Sequence record: MW748999.1
Strand: one strand, 5' to 3'
Length of the DNA: 64,000 nt
Source: Escherichia phage vB_EcoM_Skers
A model generated the notes under the pieces. That model was not told the DNA's origin. It worked only from the letters and a program-made list of their open reading frames with translations, and ran no database searches. The position numbers were made by a program, and so were the translations under genes. Shown here in pieces: positions 13,830 through 39,482 of the stretch. Numbering within the stretch: position 1 is the first letter of the stretch; the number at the start of each line of letters is the position of its first letter.

Positions 13830-14111
13830 TTATTCGTGATTAGTTTCGATGTTGTGCATTTTGCACCAGTTCAGCCAATCGCCCAGATCCTGATAGTTGA
13901 TGCTTTTATCTGCTGCCATCGTTTTTGTCTTGATACCCATATGTGCGTTATGAGTAAGCATTTTTACAGTGAACTCGATTTTATCGCCTTTAGCTTTAAC
14001 ATCAACCAGTTTGGTCCACTGGCTACCAGCGCCGCGAATGTTCATACCAACGATGTTTCCGATGTATGCTTCTTTGTTTTTCAGGATTTCGGTTGCTTTG
14101 ATGAATTTCAT
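13830..14111 (-). CDS. Hypothetical protein (93 aa)
   Basis: ORF with SD; PeSL promoter upstream. Confidence 0.6.
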   Translation of the reverse strand: MKFIKATEILKNKEAYIGNIVGMNIRGAGSQWTKLVDVKAKGDKIEFTVKMLTHNAHMGIKTKTMAADKSINYQDLGDWLNWCKMHNIETNHE

Positions 14112-14145
14112 TGTTTGATTCTCCAGTTCGTTTCGGTATGGGTGT

Positions 14146-14174
14146 ATTATGCTATGTTCTTACTTTGGTGTCAA
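14146..14174 (-). promoter_or_regulatory. PeSL-type early promoter (degenerate, no palindrome)
   Basis: TTGACA-N17-CATAAT; conserved UTR CGAAACGAACT. Confidence 0.65.
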
Positions 14175-14183
14175 CAACTTTTT

Positions 14184-14453
14184 TTAGATATTTTCAGAAA
14201 TAAATTTTAAAACTTGACGTAAATGTTTCTCATCTTTGATAGTCGCCGGAAGTTCTTCTTTTACTTCCTGTGCAAGATAGATATTTCCGTTCCAAGTGAA
14301 AGATCCGTCTTCGTTTACGCGATAGCTGAACATCCACTCGCAATCATTTTCGATTTCATATACACACAGAAGGGTGTAATCGTTAAAGCTATTGATTTCA
14401 AGGTCGAAGCCGTGGCGTTTTGCAAAGTTGGTAGTGGTTTTAGTCAGTGCCAT
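14184..14453 (-). CDS. Hypothetical protein (89 aa)
   Basis: ORF with SD AGGAG; promoter upstream. Confidence 0.6.
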   Translation of the reverse strand: MALTKTTTNFAKRHGFDLEINSFNDYTLLCVYEIENDCEWMFSYRVNEDGSFTWNGNIYLAQEVKEELPATIKDEKHLRQVLKFISENI

Positions 14454-14493
14454 TGTTTGATTCTCCTAAGTGGTATCTCGTTTCGATGTGTGT

Positions 14494-14522
14494 ATTATGC
14501 TATAGGCGTGATCTGGTGTCAA
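14494..14522 (-). promoter_or_regulatory. PeSL-type early promoter (degenerate)
   Basis: TTGACA-N17-CATAAT. Confidence 0.65.
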
Positions 14523-14540
14523 CAACTTTTTTAATTTTTT

Positions 14541-14573
14541 GGAAATAAAAAAAGCCGACACTAAGGTCGGCTA
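14541..14573 (-). terminator. Intrinsic terminator
   Basis: AGCCGAC-loop-GTCGGCT followed by TTTTTTTATTT on minus strand, after 14580..14891. Confidence 0.65.
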
Positions 14574-17983: not shown

Positions 17984-18163
17984 TTACATAACAATCACGC
18001 CAGCCGTTGAAAGTTGATGTTTCAACTGAGCATTTTCTGCTACTGTCAAATCAATGATTTCTTGTGACGCTGCAATCATATAGCCATTGGTGATATTGTT
18101 TTTCATCAGTTCAATGGTTTCTTCGTTGTAGCGGATTTTAGCGATGATTTCGTTGAAGTTCAT
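17984..18163 (-). CDS. Hypothetical small protein (59 aa)
   Basis: Start trimmed to ATG 18163 downstream of PeSL promoter (MNFNEIIAKIRYN...). Confidence 0.5.
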   Translation of the reverse strand: MNFNEIIAKIRYNEETIELMKNNITNGYMIAASQEIIDLTVAENAQLKHQLSTAGVIVM

Positions 18164-18197
18164 GTTTGATTCTCCTAGTTCGTTTCGGTATGTGTGT

Positions 18198-18226
18198 AGT
18201 ATAGGGGATCGGTGATCCCCTGTCAA
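18198..18226 (-). promoter_or_regulatory. PeSL-type early promoter cassette
   Basis: TTGACA-N17-TATACT; spacer palindrome GGGGATCaccGATCCCC. Confidence 0.75.
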
Positions 18227-18239
18227 CAACTTTTTTGAA

Positions 18240-18716
18240 TTATTTTTCTTGATGCTCGCGCTCGTACTTTTCGAAATAAAATTCTACTGGCTGGTCGTGG
18301 ATTGACAGTAAGCCAAAGCGTTTAGCCGCTCGCAATCCCATATTGCGCTGAATGTACTTCTGGAAGTTCTCGCGTATACACTTACGCCAGTATTCTAAGC
18401 CCATACAGCTTTTATAAAGATTGCATTGCACACATGCCGGATTCATGTTATCAAGTATATCATGCTCCGGTTTATGCATTCCTACAACCTTATACTTCCA
18501 CGATCCATCATCATTACGGGCAATTCGTCCATTTTCATCATAGACTACCTTTGAGCGTCGCAATACTGGTTTGATGTGGTCTGCGTGCCAGCGATCCCCT
18601 AGTTCCTCGCCACAATAGGCACAACGTCCACCATATTTCATTTTCAGGATCTGGCGTTGCTCTTTCTTTGACAATTTTTTAGGTTTAGGGGCTTTCGCCC
18701 CTTCATTATCACACAT
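18240..18716 (-). CDS. HNH endonuclease
   Basis: CAYCGEEL ... WHADHIKPV ... NMNPACVQCNLYK (HNH / zinc-finger nuclease motif). Confidence 0.75.
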   Translation of the reverse strand: MCDNEGAKAPKPKKLSKKEQRQILKMKYGGRCAYCGEELGDRWHADHIKPVLRRSKVVYDENGRIARNDDGSWKYKVVGMHKPEHDILDNMNPACVQCNLYKSCMGLEYWRKCIRENFQKYIQRNMGLRAAKRFGLLSIHDQPVEFYFEKYEREHQEK

Positions 18717-33776: not shown

Positions 33777-33804
33777 ATTATACACTGTTGCGTTACGCTG
33801 TCAA
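33777..33804 (-). promoter_or_regulatory. PeSL-type early promoter (no palindrome)
   Basis: TTGACA-N16-TATAAT. Confidence 0.6.
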
Positions 33805-34971
33805 CTCTTTTTCAAAAGATTTTACGATATACATGATAGTGCTCAATTCAGACGGCGCTACTGTCTCTGTCCAGCCATCCGGCATATCTTCTTTCGAGAT
33901 ATAGGAAGTTTTACCTTTCATCGCTTCCTTGATTTTGTTTTCTAATTCTAAGATCTTTTGACCATCTTGTAAAGTCAATTCATAAAAGATCTCGTGATCG
34001 AACTTTGAAACACGAGATTGGTTTCTCATGCGCTCATGTGTTTCTTTGTTTGTTATTCCAAATTTCACGCCAACAAAGGAATCATTGTTGGTTAATTTCT
34101 GTATATAAAGAGTTCCTGTCTTTAATGCCTGATAACCATGCTTAGAACACAACGGGCAGCGTGTTCCGCGATTAACAAAATTATCAATAGTTACAACCCA
34201 TTCATGGTTACGTTCGCATGTCAGAAGTATTCTTGTTAATGCACCTTTCCACTTTCCTGAAATCCCAATAAATTTTAGTCTGTTGGTTTCGCATATTTTT
34301 TCAATTTGTTTTAATCGGTCACTTTTTGTTATTGGTGCTGTTCCGCTACATTTGTGACACCGACGACCTAGTTTGAACTTATCATAACTTTGTTCGTAAA
34401 TGTGATTATTAGGACACTCAAATTTAAGTTTAGTTTTTGTTCCTTTCCATTCCCCAATTATACCCAAAAATTTATAATCTCCTTTATTTTCATTTATATA
34501 AGATAAGGAATCTTCTTTATCATACATCTTGCCACCGTTACATAAAGGACATCTTGTTTTTTGATGAATGAAATCTGTATATGTTGGTTGGTATGTGTGT
34601 CCGTTTGCACAGTTCATAATGAGTCTTGTTCTGCTATTTTTATACTCCCCACCAACAAAACCAACAAATACATCGTTTGTTTCTTGTTTTATTCTTTCTA
34701 TCACATGGTTTAGGTTTAATCTTTGAGAATCAACCACACATTTCTTACACGAAACTTTTTTCCTGATATTTGCTAGAGTTGATGTGTATTCATGCTTGTT
34801 ATTACATAATATAAGAGCTTTTGTTTTGAGACCAGACCATTCTCCAACAAACCCCATGAAAGAATAACCAACTTCCAAACATGAATTTTTTACAACATTT
34901 TCCCAATAGAAGGGAGTTTTCGTGTTTCCTTTTATTTCTATACGAATCTCATGTGCTTGACGTACTAACAT
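33793..34971 (-). CDS. Repeat protein: four zinc-ribbon-like repeats plus C-terminal GIY-YIG-like (T5orf172-type) domain
   Basis: Four ~60-aa repeats F.G..GEW.G..T...C.N.H...(x)...RC..C; C-terminal GTLYIQ...VKFGITNKETHERM...HEIFYEL...GWTE; start trimmed to ATG 34971. Confidence 0.5.
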   Translation of the reverse strand: MLVRQAHEIRIEIKGNTKTPFYWENVVKNSCLEVGYSFMGFVGEWSGLKTKALILCNNKHEYTSTLANIRKKVSCKKCVVDSQRLNLNHVIERIKQETNDVFVGFVGGEYKNSRTRLIMNCANGHTYQPTYTDFIHQKTRCPLCNGGKMYDKEDSLSYINENKGDYKFLGIIGEWKGTKTKLKFECPNNHIYEQSYDKFKLGRRCHKCSGTAPITKSDRLKQIEKICETNRLKFIGISGKWKGALTRILLTCERNHEWVVTIDNFVNRGTRCPLCSKHGYQALKTGTLYIQKLTNNDSFVGVKFGITNKETHERMRNQSRVSKFDHEIFYELTLQDGQKILELENKIKEAMKGKTSYISKEDMPDGWTETVAPSELSTIMYIVKSFEKELTA

Positions 34972-35001
34972 AATTTTATCCTCCTTTGTTTCGATGTTTG
35001 T

Positions 35002-35029
35002 ATTATACATCCTAACATCAGCATGTCAA
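35002..35029 (-). promoter_or_regulatory. PeSL-type early promoter (no palindrome)
   Basis: TTGACA-N16-TATAAT. Confidence 0.6.
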
Positions 35030-35091: not shown

Positions 35092-36066
35092 TTACATCGC
35101 TAACAGAGAATCCAGGTCATCCAGATCAGAAGCGGAGGAAGTACCGCCACCCAGATCCAGAGATGCCATCAGGTCATCAGCGGAAGAATCTAACGCCGTG
35201 CTAGCTGCGTTAATACCAACTACAGTGCTAGCTGCGGTCATACCAGAATCGAATGCATTCATCTGTGCGTCAAAATCGTCAAGCTGGCTGTTAATCGCTG
35301 CCGCAGCACTGGAAGCCGCAGCACCAGCTACCATAGAAACGCCCATAGTTTTCTTAAATTTGGTTTCCAGTTCATCGAACGGTTTAAACTGGCTAGGCGC
35401 TACAATCTCACTCAGATCAACCATGTTTTCCATCAGATATTTCTGATATGCTTCGTCTTCAATTTTCGGAAGCTGTGATTGCTGCATGAAACGAGAATCA
35501 TCATAGTTCTGGTGTTTATCAACCTTCTTAGCTTTCAGGAGGAAGTTAGCACCAGAGAACACACAAGTTACATCGACCGGAACTTCGCCCATATCGGTAT
35601 TCACGTTCACCATTGCAACGATCTTATCATAAATTTTCTGACCGAAGCGGAATTTGAATACCTTACCTTCATTTTCTGGTGCTTGAGGATCTTTCAGTAC
35701 CAGAATGTTTGCGTAGTAAGACGCTTTACGCTTAATCAGTTGCCATTCGGTTTTATCGGTATTGTACAAGTCTTTTTCGTTAATATATTTGCACACAGGG
35801 CAAGAATCAAAATCACCGTGGGTGCTGGAGCAGTTTTCCCAATACCATTTGCCATTAACTTTGAAGGAATGGTTTACCAGTTTCACAATCGGCAGACCGT
35901 CTTCTGTCTTAGACGGCAGGAAGCGAATCAGGGCTTCACCGTTACCTGCTGCATCAGTCTTAATCTTCCACTCTTTCGGATCTTCTTTGGAGAAACCGTT
36001 GCCACCTTTCAGTGCGGCCAGTTGAGCTTGCAATTTGGAGCTATCTTGACGACGAAACATGTTCAT
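35092..36066 (-). CDS. 32: Single-stranded DNA-binding protein gp32
   Basis: Strong match to recalled T4 gp32 (LPSK, NGKWY, CSSTHGD.DSCPVC zinc site, acidic C-tail). Confidence 0.92.
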
Positions 36067-36126: not shown

Positions 36127-36723
36127 TTAATTGCTTGTCAATACTTTATCAATTATATCTAACAGTTTTGGCTTTCTATTTTCAAATTCTAACATCTCTT
36201 CGGGAGAAATGTCAACTACTTCTGTTTTGTTGAAAAAGTTTGGGTCTATAGCATCAGCAACAAAGTTTCTCGCAAGTGCTGCCGCTTTCTCATGAACATA
36301 TATTCCCAAATATATCAACTTCTTTCTTTCGACCTGAATATTGGCAACATATTTACCATCTCGTTTATAAAGACTAACACCGATATATTCAGACGATCGA
36401 CCTTTCTGTTTACCCATATTTCTTGAGTTTTGTTGCTCGTTCGCATCTCTCAAGTTTTCAATCCGATTATCTGTTATAATTCGGTTAACATGGTCAACGT
36501 ATTTTGGCATGTATCCATGATGCATAAAGAAAATTATTCTATGCTCTTTATGATGTTTACCATCGATACACACCAATCTGTATCCATGACTAGGATTAAC
36601 TCCACCCGCTCTAGATCCGACTTTATGCTTTCGGTTTGTCGATATCTTGCGAATCAGCTTACCGTTATCATATTTAAAGAGTTCATGACAACGAGCATAC
36701 AATTCAGGATCATATGTTTTCAC
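36127..36723 (-). CDS. HNH homing endonuclease with AP2 DNA-binding domain
   Basis: HNH motif HHGYMPKYVDHVNRIITDNRIENLR; AP2-like SEYIGVSLYKRDGKYVANIQV; inserted between genes 59 and 32. Confidence 0.75.
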   Translation of the reverse strand: MKTYDPELYARCHELFKYDNGKLIRKISTNRKHKVGSRAGGVNPSHGYRLVCIDGKHHKEHRIIFFMHHGYMPKYVDHVNRIITDNRIENLRDANEQQNSRNMGKQKGRSSEYIGVSLYKRDGKYVANIQVERKKLIYLGIYVHEKAAALARNFVADAIDPNFFNKTEVVDISPEEMLEFENRKPKLLDIIDKVLTSN

Positions 36724-37387
36724 CTTTTAACCTCGATATTTCTTTACACTCTTTAACTACTTTAACAAATAATGCTCTTGCTTTTGCGGCGTCAATAACA
36801 AGTAGTTTCTTGTACGCCTTCATTTTAACACTATAAGTTTGCCAAATCAAGTCTTTGGCTACCTTGTCGTGTTCGTCGATTATATTTAGAAAGCTATCTA
36901 ACAACATAAACGACTCAAACGATATAATCCGATTTTGCAGTAGTTTAAAAATACCGCTTGTTTCGGTTGCGGGATTATATGTAATTAGCTCTTTAAGAGT
37001 AACCCCGCGTTTCTCGGAGAAGTATACCAGACTTTTAATGTCATCGTCAAATCTTGTTGCTGCATCGGTTATCTTTCCTATGTATTCCATATAAAAGCCG
37101 TATGCGTCAACATCAGTGATTTCACCTACCCATGCATCGGTATTGGCTACCAGATTGCTTAGGAATAGGAAGTATAATTCTCTTAGATTGTATTTTTCCG
37201 CTAATTTCGCGAAATAATACTTATCTCTGCGTTTATTGAATGCGGCATCAGATAACCGCATCCTCCAATTATATTTTACGCAATCATAACGCCCGTTCAT
37301 ATGAGCTTTCATCATGCAATATAACATATACACAGATTTAGCATTAATTCGCATATCTGGATCTGGAGGAAGACGGTTTCTGATCAT
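36710..37387 (-). CDS. 59: Helicase loader gp59
   Basis: KSVYMLYCMMKAHMNGRYDCVKYNWRMRLSDAAFNKRRDKYYF matches recalled T4 gp59. Confidence 0.9.
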   Translation of the reverse strand: MIRNRLPPDPDMRINAKSVYMLYCMMKAHMNGRYDCVKYNWRMRLSDAAFNKRRDKYYFAKLAEKYNLRELYFLFLSNLVANTDAWVGEITDVDAYGFYMEYIGKITDAATRFDDDIKSLVYFSEKRGVTLKELITYNPATETSGIFKLLQNRIISFESFMLLDSFLNIIDEHDKVAKDLIWQTYSVKMKAYKKLLVIDAAKARALFVKVVKECKEISRLKGENI

Positions 37388-37396
37388 ACATACCCC

Positions 37397-37666
37397 TTAA
37401 ATATCGAGAGTGTTGGTCGGTTCGTCGATCACTCCCTTCCTGAGTGTTCTATTTACTATACATTCTTGTGTGATCTTGTCAATAATGGACACCGGAATAT
37501 ACTTCTGATAGTGACCATATTCTATAGAGTTTTCCTCTACAAACTGAGTGGTCGCTTCAAGATAAGTCAATCCCTCTTCAACAACCAGTTTTTCGATTGC
37601 AAGACCGTTTGCTGTTTTGTTCGCGGCTTTTACCGCATGTTCATTAAGCATTGAACACCCGATCAT
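37397..37666 (-). CDS. 33: Late transcription co-activator gp33
   Basis: IEKLVVEEGLTYLEATTQFVEENSI matches recalled T4 gp33. Confidence 0.85.
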   Translation of the reverse strand: MIGCSMLNEHAVKAANKTANGLAIEKLVVEEGLTYLEATTQFVEENSIEYGHYQKYIPVSIIDKITQECIVNRTLRKGVIDEPTNTLDI

Positions 37667-37919
37667 AGAGTTCTACCGCTTCATCGCGTTCTGCTTCGAA
37701 GGTTTCGCGCTGTTGCTGGTGATACAGTTTAAACAGAATGCCCCACATTTTACCATCTACGCCTAATTCTTCTTTAGCACGCTGTTTGATCTCTTTGATC
37801 TTATCGCCATATGCTTCTTGAATGGTTTTCTGATCGCTGGCTTCTTTAATCAGTTGTGCCAGGGTATTTCCGTGTACATTTTCATCGAATACTACTTTTT
37901 CTTTTTTCTGTTCAGTCAT
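37644..37919 (-). CDS. dsbA: dsDNA-binding protein DsbA
   Basis: FDENVHGNTLAQLIKEASD ... ELGVDGKM ... ELYDRVF matches recalled T4 DsbA. Confidence 0.85.
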   Translation of the reverse strand: MTEQKKEKVVFDENVHGNTLAQLIKEASDQKTIQEAYGDKIKEIKQRAKEELGVDGKMWGILFKLYHQQQRETFEAERDEAVELYDRVFNA

Positions 37920-37924
37920 AATAT

Positions 37925-38524
37925 TTAACCCTCTTTCGTCATTAATTGAAAACCACGTTCAGCTTTTGAAATTTCGCTAGGACTTAAATCGTCACCAACA
38001 TATCCTAGCATCATTTCTCGGATAATGTCAAGTGCTTTTTCATCACCTGATTTTAACTCGAACTCAAGTTCATAATTCGCGCTTGTGTTGATATATCTAC
38101 CTATTCCTGCATAATTAAATGCATCGGTGCATATTTCAACTACGCCTATACCAGTATCAATTGTTCGAGCTACTCTAGCTGTCATAACATAAAATTGCGG
38201 TCTAAGTTGTGTTAAGTTAACACCCAAACAATTAACAAATTCAGAAAAATCTTGATAACTACAAAACACTATTTCTTCTCGGTTAAATAAACCGCTTTCG
38301 TGACTTCCATGTTTTATTAGAAATTTATTTGTCTTTTTGTCAAGACGTGCATACACTCCCTGTTTATGTAAAATATATTCTTCGTCATCATAATACGATT
38401 CTAGCTTATTATAGATTTTTCTGTCTACAATACTATAACAATCATATAACTTAGAACATGCGTCAAAAATAGACTTAAGCCCTTTGTTTGACCTTGCATA
38501 GTATTTTAATTCAAGTTCTTTCAT
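37925..38524 (-). CDS. CYTH-like (triphosphate tunnel metalloenzyme) domain protein
   Basis: N-terminal ELELKY (ExExK) and C-terminal ELEFEL acidic strand motif; about 199 aa, typical CYTH size. Confidence 0.45.
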   Translation of the reverse strand: MKELELKYYARSNKGLKSIFDACSKLYDCYSIVDRKIYNKLESYYDDEEYILHKQGVYARLDKKTNKFLIKHGSHESGLFNREEIVFCSYQDFSEFVNCLGVNLTQLRPQFYVMTARVARTIDTGIGVVEICTDAFNYAGIGRYINTSANYELEFELKSGDEKALDIIREMMLGYVGDDLSPSEISKAERGFQLMTKEG

Positions 38525-38534
38525 ATGTCAACCC

Positions 38535-39482
38535 TTAGAACTCACCAATTTTCTGCAACATTTTAACTAACGCATTTGTTACAAAATAGTTATAAATCTT
38601 ACCGCGTGGTGCTGGTTTAGATTTCTCCCATGACTCCAGGATCTGATTCTGGATATTGTCTGGGATCTCGTCAAAGTCAATCAACTGACGGTTTTCATCA
38701 AATCGACGTGCTTCTTCCTCTGTCATCAAAGACTTTGGATCTTCGGCATCGAAAATTTGCTCTAACCATTTGGTTGCAATTGGTTTAGCTCGTTCTCCTT
38801 CCAGTCGTGAGATAATGAAATCACTACGGCACTTGATCGAAGCTACACCGTCTTTTGCGTCACCCTTAACACATTTTACCATAAGGTCTTTGTAAGGGCT
38901 ACCATATTTGCATTTCTTCCATGCTTTCTGTACTGGCGCCCACTGTTTCACGTTTTTGTATTTGTGCAACTGTGTGTAGTCACCATCGCCGGAGTTGATT
39001 AGCACCTGGCGACCTTCTACAGAAAACTTTTTAGTTAACACAGCGATTATATCATCCGCTTCAACTTTGTCAACCTTAATAACGTGATAAGGCATGTTCT
39101 CTTTAAACTCTTCGGTGATCTTATTGATCGCAGCAAAGATCATCTCCCAATCACGCGGATCTGCGTCTCGTTTTTCCTTACGGTTGCGTTTATAGTAAGG
39201 GGCGATATCACGTCGCCAGTAACCTTTGCTTGAATCAAAGGCAAGTACCGTAATTGGGTATTGCTCTTTGAATTTTGTCATATTATAACGCATGGTGTCA
39301 AGAATAAGATGACGGATCATGCCTTCACTAATAGGGTCTTCCGGTTTAAAGGTATGCGAGATAGTAGCAATCATAAGCTGCGACATATCAATCAAATGCA
39401 CACCTTCCGGCAGTTTATCTTCTGGAGCATCGAAGAAATCATTAAGTGTAGCGGTAGTTTTTGTAAACGGGTTATACGTCAT
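38535..39482 (-). CDS. rnh: RNase H (5'-3' exonuclease / flap endonuclease)
   Basis: YWRRD.APYYKRNR, KYPNVKQW-like, DFIISRLEGER and PRGKIYNYF match recalled T4 RNase H. Confidence 0.9.
   Translation of the reverse strand: MTYNPFTKTTATLNDFFDAPEDKLPEGVHLIDMSQLMIATISHTFKPEDPISEGMIRHLILDTMRYNMTKFKEQYPITVLAFDSSKGYWRRDIAPYYKRNRKEKRDADPRDWEMIFAAINKITEEFKENMPYHVIKVDKVEADDIIAVLTKKFSVEGRQVLINSGDGDYTQLHKYKNVKQWAPVQKAWKKCKYGSPYKDLMVKCVKGDAKDGVASIKCRSDFIISRLEGERAKPIATKWLEQIFDAEDPKSLMTEEEARRFDENRQLIDFDEIPDNIQNQILESWEKSKPAPRGKIYNYFVTNALVKMLQKIGEF

Follow-up and report, generated by a model that had tools for sequence, protein, structure and literature searches.

A CYTH-type gene lies between rnh and dsbA in phage Skers

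The 64,000-nt stretch of the Escherichia phage vB_EcoM_Skers genome that was analyzed here (record MW748999.1; hereafter the window) carries an open reading frame (ORF) of 199 aa between the genes rnh and dsbA. In the ORF list of the window it starts with an ATG codon and is located on the minus strand at 37925..38524. Its product is predicted to adopt the tunnel fold of the CYTH family, whose members are also called triphosphate tunnel metalloenzymes (TTM), and the gene is a rare mosaic allele in which both ends are shared with the closest relatives and the central part is replaced. An earlier note, made from the letters of this DNA, had placed a CYTH-like ORF of this length in this slot without giving its strand, and it was found exactly there. 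The protein begins with MKELELKYY, and the opening ELELKY that the note had taken for the ExExK motif of the CYTH fold is indeed E3-L-E5-L-K7; likewise, the acidic C-terminal stretch YELEFEL is present as Y151-E-L-E-F-E-L-K158. The premise of the note that rnh and dsbA are adjacent in T4 is correct; in the T4 record the two genes are 8 nt apart with no gene between them, and T4 lacks the CYTH gene. Over the ~5 kb around the gene, RB49-like coliphages of the genus Krischvirus, e.g. G2494 and MIZ4, show 97-98% identity to the window.

The predicted protein matches PHROG 14893 (E = 2.6e-76) and has 43 database homologs, all but one of which (42/43) are Krischvirus-type proteins, either full-length or truncated. 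The slot between rnh and dsbA is filled in every Krischvirus locus examined, and the ratio of nonsynonymous to synonymous substitution rates (dN/dS) of the ORF is 0.24-0.27 when measured against a 90%-identical allele. Combined, these results indicate that the ORF is a real gene and not a chance frame. Only one locus has a disrupted frame. When 1.84 billion representatives were searched exhaustively with phmmer, only 9 matches at E <= 1e-3 were returned, none of them nearer than the Krischvirus cluster, and the family is thus thin beyond Krischvirus. Among the viral structure models of BFVD, the close structural relatives were limited to a class B protein (see below; template modelling (TM) score 0.87) and the truncated G2494 product; the remaining viral TTMs of that database comprised one VTC-like phage protein and capping enzymes of giant viruses. 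In Krischvirus and in related uncultured T4-like phages, the gene is an accessory one.

Family assignment and predicted fold

Homologs of the window protein fall into three allele classes, A, B and C, the window copy belonging to class A and the copy of phage RB49, RB49p245, to class B. The window protein and RB49p245 are 59% identical (BLASTP, E = 5e-79), and RB49p245 itself matches the Pfam CYTH profile PF01928 with 27.7 bits, above the cut-off of 23.2. With the same profile, class B homologs score 27-31 bits and pass, whereas the class A relatives P0004 and P0006 score 16 bits and fail. An alignment of 19 phage homologs from all three classes (A1) served as the basis of a family profile and of an AlphaFold2 (AF2) model. 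The family profile aligned end to end with the tunnel domain of Escherichia coli YgiF (PDB 5A60, residues 5-200; E = 5.5e-13). When a profile restricted to class A was compared by hhalign with five non-phage proteins, all five of which pass Pfam CYTH, they aligned over residues 38-197 with a probability of 99.6% (E = 4.7e-24). The AF2 model obtained with A1 has a predicted local distance difference test score (pLDDT) of 87.7, a predicted TM score (pTM) of 0.80 and eight main strands, and a Foldseek search with it returned YgiF at the top (E = 7.8e-10, TM 0.73), followed almost solely by TTM enzymes.

The CYTH assignment is based on transitive homology, on profile-profile comparison and on a model that depends on divergent homologs. 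From these, the window protein is predicted to have the CYTH / triphosphate-tunnel fold, eight-stranded and antiparallel, with its two-metal site intact. Homology, profiles, model, Foldseek ranking and the conserved active site described below all agree with the CYTH call of the earlier note, and the eight-strand tunnel that it expected from structure prediction was recovered, with confidence when divergent homologs were included.

The family assignment is not new. RB49p245 carries the GenBank note 'similar to P45267, P30871, HI1598, ygiF', and RB49ORF244c was listed with 'CYTH domain, 0.0026' by Nolan et al. 2006; the assignment is therefore already in the literature, and 'inorganic triphosphatase' and 'adenylate cyclase' appear as names of the homolog in some GenBank records. 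After two decades of a CYTH / ygiF-like label on the RB49 homolog, the assignment adds little, and the earlier note overestimated its novelty. What the note missed is the rare mosaic nature of the window copy. New here are the rare class A cassette allele, which evades profile annotation, and a polymorphism of three classes that share a conserved tunnel under a replaced surface.

A central cassette is replaced between three allele classes

A sliding comparison with RB49 and G2494 showed ~100% DNA identity up to position 38070, ~50% over 38071-~38500 and again ~100% from ~38500 into rnh; blastn of the window against RB49 leaves a gap at 38075-38494. At the protein level, codons 1-9 are identical, codons 10-151 are replaced and codons 152-199 are conserved. 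Between classes A, B and C, DNA identity in this cassette is 49-55%, compared to 93-100% in rnh, in dsbA and at both ends of the gene. The GC content of the cassette is 0.32-0.34 in classes A and C (0.32 in A), 0.39 in class B and 0.40 in the backbone, and the AT-richness of A and C hints at an import from an AT-richer phage. The window is collinear with RB49 over ~46 kb; within these, the CYTH cassette is the one near-equal-length replacement seen inside a gene, the other breaks in the alignment being insertions or deletions or falling in the tail-fibre region, where, from ~46590 onward, the distal tail-fibre genes are either 70% identical to RB49 or not aligned with it.

The three classes differ widely in abundance. 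Class A comprises the window copy and P0001-P0006 (6 clusters at 90% identity, 19 member sequences), class B a broad cloud of RB49-like and Phi1-like proteins at 80-100% identity (35 clusters, 289 members) and class C the single cluster P0036 with 2 members. All 58 Krischvirus isolates of the phage collection carry class B and none carries A or C; elsewhere, the sources of class A were limited to metagenomes and one mislabelled NCBI assembly, and IMG/VR holds three loci, all of class B. The exact protein of the window is absent from the database, the best match being 97% identical.

The depth of the divergence was assessed relative to an outgroup, P0044, a homolog in an uncultured T4-like phage (L016, a 3.2-kb Logan contig of SRR6474908) that was found by protein search and contig look-up. 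Its gene order, rnh-CYTH-dsbA-gp33, is that of the window. The flanking proteins (rnh, dsbA, gp33) are 80-82% identical to those of the window, whereas the identity of the two CYTH proteins is only 44%. This phage is the nearest outgroup, and no isolate phage matches its contig better than Krischvirus does. Cassettes of different classes share 39-43% protein identity with one another and 37-41% with P0044. Since they diverge from each other as much as from the outgroup, the allele classes must be far older than the Krischvirus backbone or have been imported into it. The scans of metagenome and viral contigs found none of the outgroups P0044, P0045 and P0048, and no donor lineage of the class A cassette was found by phmmer of the 1.84 billion representatives or in IMG/VR.

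The two crossover boundaries coincide with the two catalytic motifs, ExExK and the beta8 sequence ELEFELK, and no other part of the gene is as conserved as these. In the scenario that we propose, codons 10-151 were exchanged by recombination at these two motifs, with the tunnel lining kept and nearly all of the exterior replaced. Finer mosaicism was seen within class A. The closest relative at the CYTH locus is L008 (GCA_038450185.1, contig ABRWMG010000001.1, 163,765 bp), and over ~6 kb it differs from the window at 63 positions, 16 of which lie in the ~190 nt of 38078-38264, none in 38265-38524 and 3 in rnh. This contig is deposited as part of an 'Escherichia coli' assembly; the gene content of the 6.6 kb examined is that of Krischvirus. 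A homing endonuclease of the HNH type encoded nearby was considered as a driver of the cassette and rejected: it accompanies class A as well as class B alleles, and the 1.2 kb that separate it from the cassette are ~100% conserved, so that nothing points to a link between the two elements. The class A cassette and the three-class polymorphism appear not to have been reported before.

Selection on the cassette

Within class A, dN/dS of the cassette is 0.27, compared to 0.08 for rnh and 0.12 for dsbA; the CYTH gene is under purifying selection, weaker than that on its neighbours. Residues identical in all three classes occupy 40 of the 142 cassette positions. In the four tunnel strands that contain an inward anchor, 13/18 positions of inward parity are conserved and only 2/17 of outward parity (Fisher p = 5e-4); the anchors were picked for their conservation, which slightly inflates the contrast, and a recount without the four anchors gives 9/14 versus 2/17. 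The tunnel is kept and the exterior is replaced, which argues for retained catalysis. Replacement of the surface is compatible either with diversifying selection or with relaxed constraint on the surface.

Active site and expected chemistry

None of the 19 phage homologs in alignment A1 deviates at any of thirteen residues: E3, E5, K7, R60, K71, R82, E84, R117, E152, E154, E156, K187 and R190. The bacterial CYTH protein P0043 has the same active-site residues except for K71, which is replaced by Gly. In YgiF, metal 2 is held by Glu4, Glu6 and Glu162 and metal 1 by Glu160, Arg56 is the proton donor and Lys69 binds the substrate; mutagenesis showed that all six of these residues are needed for activity (Martinez et al. 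2015). In the profile alignment, Glu4, Glu6, Glu162, Glu160, Arg56 and Lys69 correspond to E3, E5, E156, E154, R60 and K71 of the window protein, and the lysine of ExExK, K7, aligns with Lys8.

A two-metal mechanism can be proposed from the structures of YgiF, AtTTM3 and SaTTM. Eight antiparallel strands would form a tunnel in which the triphosphate would be held by K7, R60, K71, R82 and R117, together with K187 and R190 on the C-terminal helix. Metal 1 would be bound by E154 and the substrate; metal 2, bound by E3, E5 and E156, would activate a water molecule to attack the terminal phosphate in line, with R60 acting as proton donor. The expected products would be orthophosphate and the diphosphate remainder.

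Published sequence determinants allow the type of enzyme to be narrowed. According to Vogt et al. 2021, an HFxxxxExExK motif is required in class IV cyclases, where the first Arg of R-x-R gives way to a small residue (Val, Cys or Leu) and the second Glu of the beta8 ExE to Ala; a WxRxR motif is found in thiamine triphosphatases, and some bacterial and archaeal TTMs hydrolyse nucleoside triphosphates (NTPs) too. In the window protein the HF motif of cyclases is impossible, as Met-Lys alone precede ExExK, the gatekeeper Arg of the R-x-R strand is present as the invariant R60, and the second beta8 Glu is present as the invariant E156. As the HF motif, the small gatekeeper residue and the beta8 Ala all fail, the sequence argues against a class IV cyclase and contradicts the suggestion of the earlier note that the protein might generate a nucleotide signal. 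An assignment as thiamine triphosphatase was likewise rejected: the strand reads Y58-A-R60-L-D62, with no Trp and no second Arg, and WxRxR fails. Nor did the window protein show its closest affinity to Cet1, Pct1 or viral capping triphosphatases. The published determinants argue that it is of the phosphatase (TTM) type and neither a cyclase nor a thiamine triphosphatase. By analogy with characterized TTMs, its activity would most likely be the Mg- or Mn-dependent hydrolysis of a terminal phosphate. Tripolyphosphate, the substrate of its nearest relative, or another small triphosphate may serve as a default guess, which we hold only tentatively for tripolyphosphate itself.

Comparison with characterized relatives

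The closest characterized relative is YgiF, through its tunnel domain (PDB 5A60/5A61; Kohn 2012, Martinez 2015). This Mg-dependent enzyme acts specifically on tripolyphosphate, and no cyclase activity could be detected for it. The phage protein shares with it ExExK, the catalytic Arg and Lys, the E-x-E-x-E of beta8 and an SKA-x-RG motif on the C-terminal helix (S186-K-A-E-R-G191, in the conserved 3' end of the gene), and a two-metal hydrolysis would be expected by analogy. The phage-encoded protein differs in its overall sequence (~21% identity) and has Asp62 for Arg58 and Lys158 for a Leu. RB49p245 / RB49ORF244c (class B, PHROG 14893, 198 aa) occupies the same slot between rnh and dsbA and has the same catalytic residues; its first 9 and last ~48 residues are identical to those of the window protein, whereas codons 10-151 share ~43% protein and ~52% DNA identity and, unlike RB49p245, which passes Pfam CYTH, the window allele remains below the threshold.

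The stand-alone bacterial and archaeal triphosphatases NeuTTM, CthTTM, SaTTM and BH2851 resemble the phage protein in being single domains of ~150-200 aa with the tunnel fold, an acidic patch and phosphatase-type determinants; unlike them, the phage family has R-x-D for R-x-R. The class IV adenylate cyclase CyaB (PDB 2FJT, 3N10) shares superfamily and fold but, in contrast to it, the phage protein has no HF motif, no small gatekeeper residue and no beta8 Ala. Finally, the viral TTM RNA triphosphatases (Cet1-like; capping enzymes of mimivirus and giant viruses) are also viral enzymes of the TTM fold. They act on a 5'-triphosphate and, unlike the phage protein, belong to large multidomain capping enzymes in viruses of eukaryotes.

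Gene neighbourhood

The features of the locus are listed in Table 1. No terminator-like site was found on the minus strand between rnh and dsbA, and co-transcription of the CYTH gene with these two genes is therefore likely; judged from the sequence, the three genes probably share a transcript. Promoter-like sites are enriched in the rnh/CYTH region (18 found versus 8.5 expected). They include, inside rnh and on its coding strand, a perfect sigma-70 consensus with an upstream TG, and a second match of 11/12 that spans the CYTH start codon; either might serve CYTH and dsbA as an early promoter. The whole 64-kb window contains no tRNA gene and no Rfam match at gathering thresholds.

Table 1. Features of the rnh-dsbA region of the window and of its surroundings
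Feature	Position	Strand	Remarks
CYTH/TTM gene	37925..38524	(-)	199 aa, class A allele
Conserved 5' end	38498..38524	(-)	codons 1-9, ExExK E3/E5/K7; upstream recombination boundary; 100% DNA identity in 7/7 loci compared
Variable cassette	38072..38497	(-)	codons 10-151; tunnel residues R60, K71, R82, E84, R117 on replaced surface
Conserved 3' end	37925..38071	(-)	codons 152-199 and stop; beta8 E152-L-E154-F-E156-L-K158; downstream recombination boundary; 94-99% DNA identity in all classes
Second-level mosaic patch within class A	38078..38264	(-)	comparison with L008
Shine-Dalgarno AAGGG	38532..38536	(-)	7 nt before the CYTH ATG, overlaps the rnh stop codon (38535-38537); read from sequence
rnh	38535-39482		upstream neighbour; Pfam RNaseH_C E = 5e-38, PHROGs
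dsbA	37644-37919		downstream neighbour; Pfam Phage_DsbA E = 5e-22, PHROGs
gp33	37397-37666		further downstream; Pfam/PHROGs
gp59	36710-37387		further downstream; Pfam/PHROGs
HNH endonuclease	36127-36723	(-)	further downstream; Pfam/PHROGs
gp32	35092-36066		further downstream; Pfam/PHROGs
405-aa ORF	33793-35010	(-)	downstream of gene 32
sigma-70 consensus in rnh	39073-39046	(-)	TTGACA-16-TATAAT
sigma-70 match at CYTH start	38531-38503	(-)	TTGACA-17-TAAAAT
Mosaic patch in 3' part of rnh	38621-38720

Other mosaic or mobile features were seen in the surroundings. Between flanks of ~100% identity, the patch in the 3' part of rnh shows only 60-82% identity with G2494 and 82-84% with RB49, and L008 differs from the window there at two sites only. 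The endonuclease gene between genes 32 and 59 encodes HNH and AP2 domains and shares 14 nt with the 3' end of gp59; G2494, MIZ4 and L008 have this gene, and RB49 lacks it. T4 has an unrelated GIY-YIG endonuclease, SegG, at the same junction, which therefore looks like a recurrent insertion site for homing endonucleases. The 405-aa ORF downstream of gene 32 contains four CapR-homology repeats and a treble-clef zinc finger; its region 34108-34972 could not be aligned to RB49, which has a 485-aa 'endonuclease', RB49p240, there. In a block of short early ORFs (~13830-14570 and ~18150-18260), small rearranged or repeated segments interrupt the similarity to RB49.

Weight of the evidence and alternative explanations

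Taken as a whole, the data favour a stand-alone, YgiF-like tunnel phosphohydrolase encoded by an accessory gene and carried by phage Skers as a rare class A allele acquired through cassette exchange; we give this reading a probability of about 0.72. A number of observations weigh against it. Pfam returned no CYTH (PF01928) match for the window protein at E <= 1, a sub-threshold match to His_Phos_2 (E = 0.14) being the only one, and there was no match in NCBIfam or PADLOC. A sequence search of the PDB yielded only Cas2 at chance level (E = 0.53), and the profile restricted to class A did not reach YgiF there. The earlier note had counted on a CYTH profile match of the protein itself, and this expectation failed. 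It had also taken the lack of such a match together with a non-barrel fold as evidence against its own call; the match is lacking, but the AF2 model has the eight strands. We read the missing PF01928 match as a failure of sensitivity of the hidden Markov model on a divergent allele. The AF2 model rerun with class A rows only had a pLDDT of 40, which speaks neither for nor against the fold; because the confident model needs divergent homologs, the fold of the class A allele is not independently established.

The chemistry and the role meet with similar reservations. The second Arg of R-x-R (Arg58 in YgiF) is Asp62 throughout the phage family, a substitution that changes the charge inside the tunnel, so that triphosphates might be bound differently or less tightly. 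Because the phage protein is only about 21% identical to YgiF, the substrate of the latter is not confidently transferable to it; moreover, the physiological role of YgiF is itself doubted. YgiF has 433 aa, whereas the phage protein ends after 199 aa at the C-terminal helix of the tunnel, with no linker and no CHAD domain (no Pfam match to CHAD in the window protein); in the absence of this domain, it resembles the tunnel domain of YgiF and is not an ortholog of it. A frameshift near codon 58 divides the class B CYTH gene of G2494 (L002, 3406-4001) into two annotated ORFs, which reflects either a natural pseudogene or a sequencing error; the 130-aa fragment is database cluster P0042 and also has a BFVD entry. 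As this copy is frameshifted and T4 lacks the gene, the CYTH gene is dispensable. Literature searches found nothing relevant on phage CYTH function or on the biochemistry or genetics of any family member.

Several alternatives were considered, and they differ mainly in what the tunnel would be used for. The same chemistry could serve counter-defence or conflict with the host, either by destroying a host signal or alarmone (candidate substrates are pppGpp, pppApp-type nucleotides, a signal derived from deoxynucleoside triphosphates (dNTPs), or a linear ppp-oligonucleotide) or by offering a surface sensed by host immunity, the classes being kept under frequency-dependent selection. Replacement of the exterior around a conserved tunnel speaks for such a role, as do classes that are as distant from each other as from the outgroup, yet have flanks 96-100% identical, the additional fine-scale mosaicism within class A, the 42 clusters at 90% identity found for this locus in the database, the accessory status of a gene that T4 lacks, and an evolution much faster than that of rnh, dsbA and gp33 (44-48% identity to the outgroup for CYTH versus 80-82%). 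However, no PADLOC model matched, the literature searches gave nothing that ties CYTH to defence or counter-defence in phages, the class A dN/dS, being below 1, gives no direct sign of positive selection, and a relaxed surface constraint combined with homogenisation of the flanks by recombination would yield the same pattern. We therefore regard a conflict role as unlikely, if worth keeping in view. The fuller version, in which the tunnel would destroy a triphosphate host signal or metabolite, the exterior would meet a variable host factor and the A, B and C cassettes would be shuffled under frequency-dependent selection, strikes us as quite unlikely. The cassette pattern is the sole hint of a host-conflict role, and the speculation of the earlier note on nucleotide signalling is only weakly supported, the data speaking neither for nor against the destruction of a signal.

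The position of the gene suggests another use, that of a 5'-triphosphatase acting with the replication genes, which would strip the 5'-triphosphates of RNA primers for RNase H or clean up dNTP or NTP species. The gene lies directly downstream of rnh, whose stop codon overlaps its Shine-Dalgarno sequence, the rnh-CYTH-dsbA-gp33 linkage is kept in the outgroup with flanking proteins ~81% identical, the TTM superfamily includes RNA triphosphatases, and some of its bacterial and archaeal members hydrolyse NTPs. NTP-degrading roles, namely the removal of unmodified NTPs or dNTPs, have also been proposed for phage CYTH enzymes by Iyer et al., and a clean-up of dNTP or NTP species has been suggested for the CYTH and MazG triphosphatases of jumbo phages. 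Yet T4 clears its primers without such a gene and gene adjacency in T4-like phages is weak functional evidence. A role at the 5' ends of RNA primers is only weakly indicated by the conserved linkage to rnh, and this explanation appears decidedly improbable. The exclusion of unmodified dNTPs was tried as a variant and rejected. Krischvirus has no genes of the hydroxymethylcytosine pathway, and TB34 and SAP, which differ in DNA modification and whose genomes are reported to be 99.96% identical, have CYTH genes that do not differ in identity, E-value or score when compared with RB49p245 by tblastn; for these reasons a role in dNTP exclusion is not indicated. A class IV (CyaB-type) adenylate or nucleotidyl cyclase making a cyclic nucleotide would fit the product name 'adenylate cyclase' used in at least four Krischvirus records, but this name is a known legacy mis-annotation of bacterial CYTH proteins, all three cyclase determinants fail (ExExK at residue 3, R60 and E156) and the nearest relative, YgiF, lacks cyclase activity; we consider a cyclase very improbable. 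Much the same low probability is given to a decaying or non-catalytic remnant, the diversity of which would reflect lost constraint. The frameshifted G2494 copy, a dN/dS two to three times that of rnh and dsbA, the absence from T4 and the very small number of relatives would all suit a remnant, but every catalytic residue is invariant across classes that are ~40% identical in the cassette and also in the outgroups P0044, P0045 and P0048, conservation tracks the inward-facing parity of the strands, the frame is intact in all loci but one, and dN/dS is well below 1.

Meaning of the finding

For annotation, it matters that the allele escapes Pfam, NCBIfam and PDB sequence searches and that homologs carry the label 'adenylate cyclase', against which the published sequence determinants speak. 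The defensible name for the product is 'Triphosphate tunnel metalloenzyme, phosphatase type'. For the biology of these phages, the point of interest is the pattern itself. An invariant tunnel with a replaced surface, in three classes of between-genus depth within genomes that are 96-100% identical, and with crossovers placed right at the two catalytic motifs, could mark a protein of phage-host conflict; relaxed constraint on the surface would give the same pattern. If the conflict explanation were true, this would be the first CYTH-family phage counter-defence enzyme.

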